Below, one piece after another: positions 1 to 4,751 of a stretch of DNA of 7,760 nt (its first letter is position 1; each line of letters begins with the position of its first letter). Both the position numbers and the translations under genes were made by a program. The notes beneath the pieces were generated by a model that saw only the letters and a list, made by a program, of their open reading frames with translations, was not told where the DNA came from and ran no database searches. The stretch is from NCBI GenBank assembly GCA_038826135.1, contig JAWBON010000054.1, positions 1 to 7,760 of the forward strand. Direction: 5' to 3'. This stretch comes from Candidatus Odinarchaeota archaeon. Its GTDB lineage: Archaea > Asgardarchaeota > Odinarchaeia > Odinarchaeales > Odinarchaeaceae.

Positions 1-234
1 GCTAAACTACTGGAAGGGAAAGGCCGTGAAGTGAAACCTGGCGGTATCATAACTTTCGTTAAAACCAAGGATGAGCTGGGAGTTAAACCACTAGCAATCG
101 CCAGTTTAAACGATATAGATACTGAAAAATACAAGGAAGCTATCGAATCAACATTCGAGCAGGTGCTTGACTCTCTTAACATTGATTTTAAAGAGGTTAT
201 GGGTATTAGAAAACTATCTGATTTCTTCGGTTGA
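1..234 (+). CDS. polB: Family B DNA polymerase, C-terminal end (5'-truncated by the window), PolB1-like
   Basis: Frame 1 is open from base 1 (AKLLEGKGREVKPGGIITFVKTK...GVKP...IDTEKYKEAIESTFEQVLDSLNIDF...LSDFFG*, TGA 232-234). This matches the archaeal PolB1 C-terminal pattern (pGdiIsfVKTk..GVKP....iD.eKY....stfeQ.ld.l). The GTG at 31 in the ORF track is internal. Confidence 0.85.
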   Translation, partial: AKLLEGKGREVKPGGIITFVKTKDELGVKPLAIASLNDIDTEKYKEAIESTFEQVLDSLNIDFKEVMGIRKLSDFFG

Positions 235-1716: not shown

Positions 1717-1872
1717 TCAACGATTAACAGGAAACTCATGCCCGCACTGAGGGCATTTACAATAGCCGCAGTCACCTAAAGATCTACTAGGACATGCACC
1801 GCAAGCAAACACCCTAGCATACGATATATCAAACGAGAAACCGCAATTAGGGCATTTAACCAATCCAGCCAT
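1717..1872 (-). CDS. Unannotated 51-aa Cys-rich microprotein (four CxxC pairs; putative double Zn or Fe-S binder)
   Basis: Hand translation of the minus strand: MAGLVKCPNCGFSFDISYARVFACGACPSRSLGDCGYCKCPQCGHEFPVNR* (ATG 1872-1870, TGA 1719-1717). A GTGAT SD-like motif at 1884-1880 lies 7 nt upstream. An alternative in-frame ATG is at 1881. Absent from the ORF track. Confidence 0.85.
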   Translation of the reverse strand: MAGLVKCPNCGFSFDISYARVFACGACPSRSLGDCGYCKCPQCGHEFPVNR

Positions 1873-2095
1873 ACAAACCATCACACTTTAAGCAAAAAAT
1901 CATTTCGCACGTATCTTTTTAAATTTAACCCTTAGCTGTTAAAACCCATTTGGAAACATAGCTAAGCCCAAATAAGATAAAAAAAGACTAATTACCCAAA
2001 AAACCTGCTCCTGTAAAAAGGTAAAACCATAAATAGCCGCTGGGAAAAATAATCAATATAAACTGTGAATAAAACCCCTGGTAAGATGAATAATA

Positions 2096-2713
2096 ATGGA
2101 GATTAAAGGATACATTATTCTAAAAGGAAACATATACCCCGCCGCCGAAATACTGAAAGCCATCGCTAATAACCCACATATAAAAATTTCTTTAACTAGT
2201 AGCGGGGAGCTGGTAATCGACAACTACAAGATTAATAAGTTAAATGAACCTCTCCCAAATATAGTTAGAAACCTCCTCTGCTTCAAAGCATTATCCTACT
2301 GCTGTTCACTAGATAAACCCTGCTCTAACAGGGATCTAGCGCTAGAACTGCTAGGTATAAGTAAAAAAACATATAAAGAGCTTAAAGAAGAACTTGAGAG
2401 AAAAATCCTAGAAAACCTTCAGAACTCTAATATCAGCGAGGAGACCGTGCCCGTTAAAGACATATTTTATAGTAGAAGCGGTTCACGCGATAGTTTAGAG
2501 GACTGGGATTTCTCACCGCTATCTAAACCTGAAAACCCTTATGAAAGTATAAAGCCAGACAGGGAAAGAGTTGAAAAGGAAGCATCCAACTTCTTCTCAG
2601 CTTTAAGCGGAGAAATAACCGCTGAAAAACAAAAAGAAATGTACTGTAAAAGATGCGGGCGAAGTATCGACGCATTTACCAGATTCTGCCCTAACTGCGG
2701 CCTACCCGTATAA
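2096..2713 (+). CDS. Hypothetical metal-binding protein: central CFxxLxYCCxxxKPC...RD motif (methanogenesis marker 9 / COG4008-like) plus C-terminal zinc ribbon
   Basis: Residues 62-105 read CFKALSYCCSLDKPCSNRDLALELLGISKKTYKELKEELERKIL. The C-terminus reads CKRCGRSIDAFTRFCPNCG (C184, C187, C198, C201). The ORF is clear; the family link is from recalled motif similarity. Confidence 0.7.
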   Translation: MEIKGYIILKGNIYPAAEILKAIANNPHIKISLTSSGELVIDNYKINKLNEPLPNIVRNLLCFKALSYCCSLDKPCSNRDLALELLGISKKTYKELKEELERKILENLQNSNISEETVPVKDIFYSRSGSRDSLEDWDFSPLSKPENPYESIKPDRERVEKEASNFFSALSGEITAEKQKEMYCKRCGRSIDAFTRFCPNCGLPV

Positions 2714-3558: not shown

Positions 3559-4554
3559 TTATCTGCCCAGATGAGTTTCTCTAAGCTGATTATATCCACT
3601 AGGATATGCATTGTATGTGTATACTTCTTCAGCTGAGACTCTGCTGCTTATTGATTTGATTATATTCAACTCATCTTCACCGGTTATATTCCAGTAAAGC
3701 AGGGATGGTTTAACACCGTTACGCTTGAATGATTCAGCTCCCGTTATCGATGATATGAGTGTATTATACTCCATACTGTTAGCTTCAGGTAATACGGGAG
3801 TCCATGGGTGAATGTTAAATATTATCTTAGTTTCACGGCTTAACATTTCAATACTTTGACCGTACTCTAATTCAATATTACTAATATAATTGGTCGAAGG
3901 CTCCAGGTAAATCTCAGAGTAAACCTCAAGCTTATCGTTAACCTGTTTAACCCGCTCTGCAAGGGTTGTTATCATATTTGCTAGTTTATCAGTGCGCCAC
4001 ATTTTCCATTTAGATTGTAAGTCACTGTCCACATTTATTCTGTTAAAGTCGAATGATTGAGGGATCCCGGCTAAGTTACTGAACTCGGATTTACAGTGAT
4101 CGCAAAAACAATAATTCCTGTTTATAAAAGTGTTGCCTACTAGTATAACTCCTTTAACAGGGTGTTTAGCGATCTCTTTTAAAACCTCGCTAAGATAGTT
4201 AACAGTTATCTCAGATGGGCATATGTGTGTGGCGCTCTTCTCCCCGCCGGATTTCACACTAGAATATTTAGGATCTTCCGCAAGGTAAATGTCCAATAAC
4301 GTGTTGACAACAGCGTAGACGTCGAAAATATCTGATGAAATTTTAACAAATTCTTTTAGGAAATCTCCGTAAACAGGGTCTTTCGGAGCGGTTTTGCTGT
4401 CATAAAATACGCGTCCAGAAGGGGGTTTCACTAAAAGACCGATTTTTGAAAGATTCCCACCGTACTCGGCTATAAACTGGGATGGAGTCATTTTAACAGC
4501 TGAGGGGTCTAATATTAAATTTAAATCGTTTACTAGAAGCTCTCTTATCTCCAT
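3559..4554 (-). CDS. Glycoside-hydrolase-like (GHL10/DUF187- or GH42-like) TIM-barrel protein with CxCxxC motif; catalytic acids appear absent
   Basis: The protein reads on the MINUS strand: the reverse complement of 4569-4552 is TTG AAC GGT GAT CAC ATG, and the TAA stop is at 3561-3559. The likely start is the ATG at 4554, preceded by GGTGAT. Motifs: KPPSGRVFYDSK, HICPS...YLSEVLKEIAKHPVKGVIL, YCFCDHCKSEF and WKMWRTDKL. Confidence 0.65.
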   Translation of the reverse strand: MEIRELLVNDLNLILDPSAVKMTPSQFIAEYGGNLSKIGLLVKPPSGRVFYDSKTAPKDPVYGDFLKEFVKISSDIFDVYAVVNTLLDIYLAEDPKYSSVKSGGEKSATHICPSEITVNYLSEVLKEIAKHPVKGVILVGNTFINRNYCFCDHCKSEFSNLAGIPQSFDFNRINVDSDLQSKWKMWRTDKLANMITTLAERVKQVNDKLEVYSEIYLEPSTNYISNIELEYGQSIEMLSRETKIIFNIHPWTPVLPEANSMEYNTLISSITGAESFKRNGVKPSLLYWNITGEDELNIIKSISSRVSAEEVYTYNAYPSGYNQLRETHLGR

Positions 4555-4751
4555 GTGATCACCGTTCAACTCCTATAGTTAGCATATAAATATATTAGCA
4601 TATATTTATATTTATATCCTGAGATTTTAGTAAAATGTTTTAAACGGGGAGTCTACACTCTCCAGTTCTCTTACCTATCTTCATCTTTGAAATTTATTAA
4701 AACTGGATTATGCAGGATTAAAAAAGACGCTTCAGGTTTAAAATCAAAGCT

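Follow-up and report, generated by a model that had tools for sequence, protein, structure and literature searches.

The gene at 2096..2713 (+ strand, an open ORF from the ORF list) of the window, by which we mean the whole 7,760-nt stretch of DNA analyzed here, codes for a 205-aa cysteine-rich protein that carries one repeat unit of methanogenesis marker 9 (TIGR03277/COG4008). Marker 9 has been listed since 2007 among the proteins exclusive to methanogens and is uncharacterized; its M. maripaludis representative is MMP1704. In the literature searched we found no paper that addresses what marker 9 does. Here the unit is embedded in an architecture that is new relative to TIGR03277, as had been predicted: a beta/alpha subdomain, the single unit, a disordered linker and a zinc ribbon follow one another in one chain. 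The protein is a new architecture of a known but uncharacterized domain, a few relatives of which are already tagged by IMG and NCBI labels.

One marker 9 unit in a composite protein

The N-terminal domain opens with a cysteine-free beta-beta-alpha-beta-beta-beta subdomain (aa 1-50; 2096..2245, +), delineated from the AlphaFold model, and continues into the one marker 9 repeat unit (aa 53-110; 2252..2425, +), which TIGR03277 and hhalign define and which comprises a helix, a Cys loop and a helix-turn-long helix. The four invariant cysteines of this unit form the motif C62-x6-C69-C70-x5-C76 (2279..2323, +), a presumed metal or Fe-S site, and are followed by RD..AL.LLG. Next comes an acidic disordered linker (aa 111 to about 180; 2426..2635, +), recognized by its low pLDDT, of about 72 residues with 16 D/E and 10 K/R. 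The chain ends in a Cys4 zinc ribbon (aa 181-205; 2636..2710, +), whose CKRC-x10-CPNC motif (aa 184-201, nt 2645-2698) completes the set of eight cysteines (62, 69, 70, 76, 184, 187, 198 and 201) and falls within a match to Pfam Zn_Ribbon_1 (PF13240; aa 183-204, 26.3 bits against a cut-off of 25, E 6.3e-6). The folded parts have a mildly basic character, in contrast to the acidic linker. The features from which the original prediction set out are all in place: the peptide CFKALSYCC...ERKIL occupies aa 62-105 (nt 2279-2410), exactly where it had been put, and both the charged linker and the C-terminal CxxC-x10-CxxC ribbon are present, the latter scoring over the Pfam cut-off.

The AlphaFold2 model, built from a 27-sequence alignment, is confident for the N-terminal domain (mean pLDDT 84), with block values of 75-89 in the aa 1-50 subdomain. 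Its elements are strands at 6-9 and 12-15, a helix at 16-25 and strands at 31-33, 39-41 and 44-46; after the subdomain come a helix at 53-60, the Cys loop at 61-76, a helix at 77-86 and a long helix at 90-110. The full-length model retains block pLDDT values of 74-86 for the N-terminal domain, with the minimum at the Cys loop, and about 82 for the ribbon, while the linker averages 39-57 per 10-residue block. No solved structure resembles the N-terminal domain, either by sequence or by fold search: Foldseek with this domain returned no PDB match at E <= 0.001, the PDB sequence searches with both profiles returned none, and wide VIA-align comparisons stayed at noise level, the highest Z, 4.7, pairing aa 1-50 with a sliding-clamp sub-element and the rows covering aa 50-112 having Z <= 3.5. 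Likewise, the ESM Atlas held no usable match for the N-terminal domain or for one small single-unit protein of the kind described below.

The similarity to marker 9 is far beyond chance. The TIGR03277 profile search, one of the checks proposed at the outset, places aa 61-107 on positions 63-109 of the 109-position profile (E 6e-10, 39.3 bits), and at the genome level the 205-aa protein is the single match to TIGR03277 in the window's genome. When hhalign sets the Asgard domain against aligned two-unit proteins, the probability is 99.1% (E 1.8e-18). The alignment of the two-unit proteins shows marker 9 to be a tandem of two ~50-aa units with eight invariant cysteines, unit 1 reading C-x10-CC-x5-C and unit 2 C-x6-CC-x5-C, each of which then runs into RD..AL..LG.s..eY..iK. 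The Cys spacing of the window's motif equals that of unit 2, to which hhalign aligns Asgard columns 58-109 only; further, when separate unit 1 and unit 2 HMMs are run on the Asgard modules the medians are 46 and 52 bits respectively, with unit 2 the best in 25/27. The same residues stand out within the Asgard family, where C62, C69, C70, C76, R79 and D80 are invariant in up to 47 aligned sequences, and where 27 orthologues share an invariant set of G5, A16, C62, L66, C69, C70, C76, R79, L86 and Y93. Thus, the single half-domain that had been proposed is borne out by TIGR03277 and hhalign in agreement, as one repeat unit only; of the two similarity tests envisaged, the profile comparison upheld the link to marker 9, whereas Foldseek on the predicted model found no match.

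The collinear numbering of the profile match had raised the idea that aa 1-107 represent a full marker 9 domain with a decayed first motif. We rejected it because hhalign covers aa 58-109 only and because aa 1-50 are modelled as beta-beta-alpha-beta-beta-beta; this region is an unrelated beta/alpha subdomain and not the counterpart of marker 9 unit 1. The protein is also not a member of TIGR03277 in the strict sense but belongs to a wider COG4008-like unit superfamily, since it departs from the family in three defining features: its 39.3 bits lie below the curated cut-off of 96.2; it has one motif in place of two tandem units with eight cysteines and two aromatic-CC-x3-KPC motifs; and its host is not MCR-bearing.

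Spread across Asgard archaea and beyond

The window corresponds to contig C54 in an assembly of 1.26 Mb and 93% completeness, and the closest homologues of the protein come from Candidatus Odinarchaeota and Odinarchaeum yellowstonii (60-96% identity). The methyl-CoM reductase domain MCR_alpha (PF02249) was not found in this genome (93% complete), in two near-complete genomes of the same genus or in any of the 201 sampled Asgard genomes (0/201), while the positive controls M. jannaschii and M. acetivorans were both matched. The domain is therefore not tied to methane metabolism. The prediction of a probable non-methanogen host holds for this Odinarchaeon, in whose genome mcrA was not found, and the opposite case, a methanogen with a standard copy, is not what the genome presents, as neither mcrA nor a standard marker 9 copy was found in it. 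A link to a Thorarchaeia-style Mtr remnant was considered as well and dropped, since searches for MtrA found none, either in the genomes with Loki-type two-unit proteins or in that of the window. The proposed extension of the family beyond methanogens stands insofar as Asgard genomes without MCR carry it, and automatic labels already mark relatives: IMG labels one f15 orthologue COG4008, and the NCBI name of the Lokiarchaeota MAG protein MBN2155439.1 is 'methanogenesis marker 9 domain-containing protein'.

Across the phylum, 134 of the 201 sampled Asgard genomes have a TIGR03277 match at E <= 1e-3, none of which reaches the cut-off. Each module-bearing genome has exactly one match, the exception being the fragmented assembly G187 with two partial ones; the gene is nearly always present once, and its inheritance follows the phylum. 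The one-unit form with a ribbon is that of most module-bearing genomes and typifies twelve sampled families, in all of which the three-part architecture is kept (f1, f2, f3, f5, f6, f7, f12, f13, f15, f16, f19 and f26, where f1 is Odinarchaeum, f7 Jordarchaeales and f19 Freyarchaeum). A two-unit form of ~150 aa is found in f9 and f23 (41/44 genomes; 70-87 bits over profile positions 1-108), whose named members are Lokiarchaeota MAGs. The two forms were never found in one genome among the 201. No match was obtained in f4, f14, f17, f20 and f21, nor in several families with one to three genomes sampled. The haem-copper oxidase COX1 was detected in 13/201 Asgard genomes, all without the module; this lack of overlap between 134 module-bearing and 13 COX1-bearing genomes is counted as a link to anaerobes, with three families (f14, f21, f25) as its entire basis.

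We fetched 27 orthologous loci across the phylum. The same three-part protein is found in all but two of the 27, and those two stop before the ribbon, one of them at a contig end. Orthologue identity drops with taxonomic distance from 63% to about 30%, the four ribbon cysteines are invariant in 47 homologues, and the linker ranges from 44 to 164 aa with acidic and polar residues abundant throughout. Of the linkers, 23/47 contain the short motif [DEN][LFIM]xx[LFIV]F, as against 1.3 +/- 1.1 (maximum 5) in composition-preserving shuffles, a count that overstates independence as the 47 sequences are related. In the window protein the D-[LF]-x-x-[LF]-F form is present in degenerate shape, as DWDFSPLS (aa 136-143, nt 2501-2524). 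A further locus, L031 (JAPDJY010000056.1), is labelled 'Thermoproteota archaeon S9B3_HD70'; it is a typical Asgard locus with a one-unit and ribbon protein 65% identical to the Jordarchaeales one, so that its label seems mistaken or not fine enough.

When 1.84 billion representative proteins were searched with a profile, 281 relatives were recovered at E <= 1e-3, and these form four groups. In about 30 the Asgard-type N-terminal domain is complete; most of them bear the ribbon as well and some are truncated. The second group is of two-unit proteins, each recovered with two matched stretches, and includes true marker 9 (P0066, 182 bits) as well as fusions of an MJ0144-type Dus-like barrel to marker 9, namely P0064 and P0089, in which TIGR00736 and TIGR03277 both score over their cut-offs, and P0079 and P0087. 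The third consists of fusions of two units to a ribbon-helix-helix (RHH) domain (P0036, P0038, P0044 and P0154). Finally, there are many single-unit proteins of 54-135 aa in which a charged stretch precedes the unit and, judged from its sequence, looks like a long, coiled-coil-like helix; they bear only coarse MAG labels (Thermoplasmata), and a contig scan for their loci returned two, both of the Asgard type. Two relatives, one two-unit and RHH protein (P0154) and one single-unit protein (P0094), are interrupted by inteins (Intein_splicing and LAGLIDADG) inserted directly before the CC pair at ...NLSY/C...HN/CCSPEKNC (slashes mark the intein boundaries), a placement which suggests that the CC motif matters.

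The repeat unit is thus a free-standing module, carried without methyl-CoM reductase by 134/201 Asgard genomes, and its one-unit and two-unit forms swap between lineages. Taken together, these observations separate the domain from methane metabolism and argue for the unit pair as the working entity.

Genomic neighborhood

Divergently from the gene, a 55-aa microprotein with eight cysteines is encoded at 1717..1884 (-) and constitutes a conserved neighbor. The 211-nt intergenic region between them (1885..2095, no strand assigned) has an A/T-rich TATA-like box before each gene, and the blocks beside each start are conserved in four Odinarchaeum genomes; the region would probably serve as a promoter on both sides. 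The microprotein family displays seven invariant cysteines in the pattern CPxC-x13-CxxC-x7-C-x4-CPxC and had no match to curated families. It occurs in 48/201 Asgard genomes, lies immediately upstream of the gene in 11/27 loci (f1, f12 in genus g20, f13 and f15; on the same strand as the gene in f13) and is 3.5-8.5 kb away in f12 (genus g12) and f7. It was not found in f6 (0/43), f16 (0/5) or f9. Hence, the co-regulated pair that had been envisaged fares unevenly: the microprotein is a conserved neighbor in four Asgard families, but among f6 genomes 43/43 carry the gene and 0/43 the microprotein. Selenocysteine in the microprotein, suggested by in-frame TGA flags in f2, was rejected, as these stops are the ORF ends.

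On the other side, an AT-rich spacer (2714-2952) separates the gene from a carbonic anhydrase gene; it has a perfect 18-nt inverted repeat (2737-2754 and 2850-2867) with an interleaved 11-nt pair (2819-2829 and 2924-2934). Beyond lies a gene for a 336-aa glycoside-hydrolase-like barrel protein with a CFCDHC motif (3559..4569, -; weak Pfam matches to DUF4838 and GHL13), homologues of which are the usual convergent neighbor (16/28 fetched loci, and L031 in addition). The window begins with the C-terminus of a family-B DNA polymerase (1..234, +; NCBIfam PRK05761, E 8.7e-21), and a PolB homologue stands beside the glycoside-hydrolase-like gene in 15/28 loci, so that the two keep company with the Cys-module gene in many Asgard families; in other lineages PolB is followed by the glycoside-hydrolase-like gene in the same orientation, and the Cys-module gene runs convergently towards them. 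Other genes of the window are, like PolB, typical of Asgard or other archaeal genomes: a TrmB-type regulator, a Ras/Rab-like GTPase, the beta carbonic anhydrase, RpoP, aIF1/SUI1 and a type-2 methionine aminopeptidase. Since the microprotein, glycoside-hydrolase-like and PolB genes are convergent or divergent and not co-transcribed with the gene, their linkage to it is no more than suggestive.

Some one-unit loci (L010, L011, L013, L026 and L027, from Jordarchaeales, Freyarchaeum and f16) have a gene for a UEV/E2-like protein close by. L031 shows the Jordarchaeales type, with a UEV/E2-like protein with a coiled-coil tail encoded divergently upstream (1774-2535, -) and then another conserved gene; these two may be an ESCRT-I-type pair. 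The Loki-type two-unit loci are set differently: of the 11 loci L029 and L037-L046, 7 have genes for a DtxR/MntR-like regulator and a P-loop kinase-like protein in their vicinity, together with a small RHH gene, and no neighbors in common were found between two-unit and one-unit loci.

Proposed function and comparison with known systems

With a confidence that stops a little short of even, we favor the reading that this is a metal or Fe-S module which works in pairs and provides the sensing or binding function of a metal- or redox-dependent regulator or adaptor, and not a methanogenesis enzyme. Briefly, Cys 62, 69, 70 and 76 would hold a metal center, either zinc or, more likely, an Fe-S cluster, the latter being judged likelier in these strict anaerobes. 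Two chains would pair such that their two units act jointly, as they would within one marker 9 chain. Contact with nucleic acid or a partner protein would fall to the mildly basic unit and to the zinc ribbon at the C-terminus, and the acidic linker with its short hydrophobic motif might serve to recruit or to auto-inhibit. Metal binding, pairing and the regulatory role are each what we infer from the combined evidence. The pairing idea fits the occurrence of one module per genome, in the one-unit or the two-unit form and never both, and is also supported by the coiled-coil-like stretch that can be read in the small single-unit proteins from elsewhere. [quoted passage not shown] Against it speak the lack of any structural match and of a DNA-binding profile on the unit, as a Pfam search of the 205-aa protein found no HTH or other DNA-binding profile there (HTH none at E <= 1), and adjacent cysteines such as the CC pair are unusual in a simple zinc site; on one possible reading, the LG[IL]S..Y..LK stretch of the helical hairpin (aa 77-110) resembles HTH motifs.

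The fusions to MJ0144-type Dus-like barrels pull in another direction, as in these methanogen-type proteins they point to an enzyme-accessory or electron-transfer role and not to a regulator. Generalized to the Asgard protein, they would make it an Fe-S (or zinc) accessory or electron-transfer module that serves an enzyme and docks on its partner via the ribbon and the linker motif, a possibility that we take seriously while placing it on the unlikely side. It would agree with the presence of the family both in MCR-bearing methanogens and in Asgard genomes without a terminal oxidase, and with the nature of the conserved convergent neighbor, a Cys-cluster TIM-barrel-like protein. However, that neighbor is not co-transcribed, an MJ0144-family gene was not found in the window's genome, and neither the 27 loci nor roughly 30 full-length representatives show a fusion of the Asgard protein to an enzyme. 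We hold it unlikely that the protein is instead a structural zinc-knuckle adaptor, in which the cysteines would stabilize the fold without sensing and which would act together with the microprotein or with nearby replication or ESCRT-type proteins. The enriched linker motif (23/47 against 1.3 in shuffles) would suit such an adaptor, as would the microprotein adjoining the gene in 11/27 loci and keeping within 3.5-8.5 kb in f12 (g12) and f7, PolB in the vicinity in 15/28 and the UEV/E2-like gene upstream in five; yet the microprotein was not found in f6 and f16, both of which have the gene, the neighbors vary by lineage, and gene order without co-transcription is weak evidence for interaction.

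Methanogenesis markers have been reported as remnants in non-methanogenic archaea (PMC9635834), a study in which the marker 9 family goes unmentioned in the main text and one supplement file. With half of the marker 9 domain retained here, the protein might by analogy be viewed as a leftover without function from an ancestral set of methanogenesis genes, now decaying in Asgard archaea. This is scarcely credible in the face of an intact ORF, invariant cysteines and a three-part architecture held in 12 families, almost always in single copy: the invariant cysteines, the conserved architecture and an identity that falls with distance are signs of purifying selection and not of decay.

Extending the favored reading of a paired sensor, one might speculate that the CC unit of ~50 aa is an archaeal module of ancient origin for metal- or Fe-S-dependent sensing and binding that is always paired, by duplication in cis in methanogens and the Loki-type proteins and in trans in most Asgard archaea, although we regard so general a scheme as improbable. 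Were it true, marker 9 would be a general regulator of anaerobic physiology and not a methanogenesis factor, the Asgard archaea would have retained the unit and rebuilt it with a eukaryote-style disordered linker and short linear motif, and the small soluble Asgard protein would be the most practical means of learning what this orphan marker, 20 years old by now, does. The results described above put a small single-copy protein on offer for biochemical study, and Asgard biology gains a Cys-rich family that spans the phylum and combines a disordered linker with a conserved short motif; its gene is usually located near PolB and in several lineages adjoins that of a conserved Cys-rich microprotein.

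Among the systems with which the window protein can be compared, the Loki-type two-unit proteins share its phylum and likewise come from genomes where MCR was not found, and their unit 2 is 35% identical to its aa 60-124. They differ in having two units per chain, the first with a Cys loop enlarged by 11 inserted residues, and in being devoid of the beta subdomain, linker and ribbon; most of these ~150-aa proteins have a hydrophobic [YFL]L.LF at or near the C-terminus. The two-unit and RHH proteins of uncultured archaea resemble the window protein in combining Cys units with a C-terminal module of a nucleic-acid-binding type, but this module is an RHH domain (Pfam RHH_1, 30 bits, over the cut-off) and not a zinc ribbon, and the units are two. 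The small single-unit proteins (P0045-P0155) match it in having one unit with four cysteines that scores best against unit 2, whereas a predicted long N-terminal helix replaces the beta/alpha subdomain and the ribbon is absent. With marker 9 itself (TIGR03277) it has in common the ~50-aa C-x6-CC-x5-C unit with its helix-turn-helix-like hairpin of the form RD..AL..LG.s..eY..lK, and both are uncharacterized proteins of strictly anaerobic archaea. Marker 9, however, consists of two units with eight cysteines in about 110 aa, and in MCR-bearing methanogens it stands by itself or follows a Dus-like TIM barrel, whereas the window protein presents one unit with four cysteines between an unrelated N-terminal subdomain and a linker with a ribbon, in an MCR-less Odinarchaeon.
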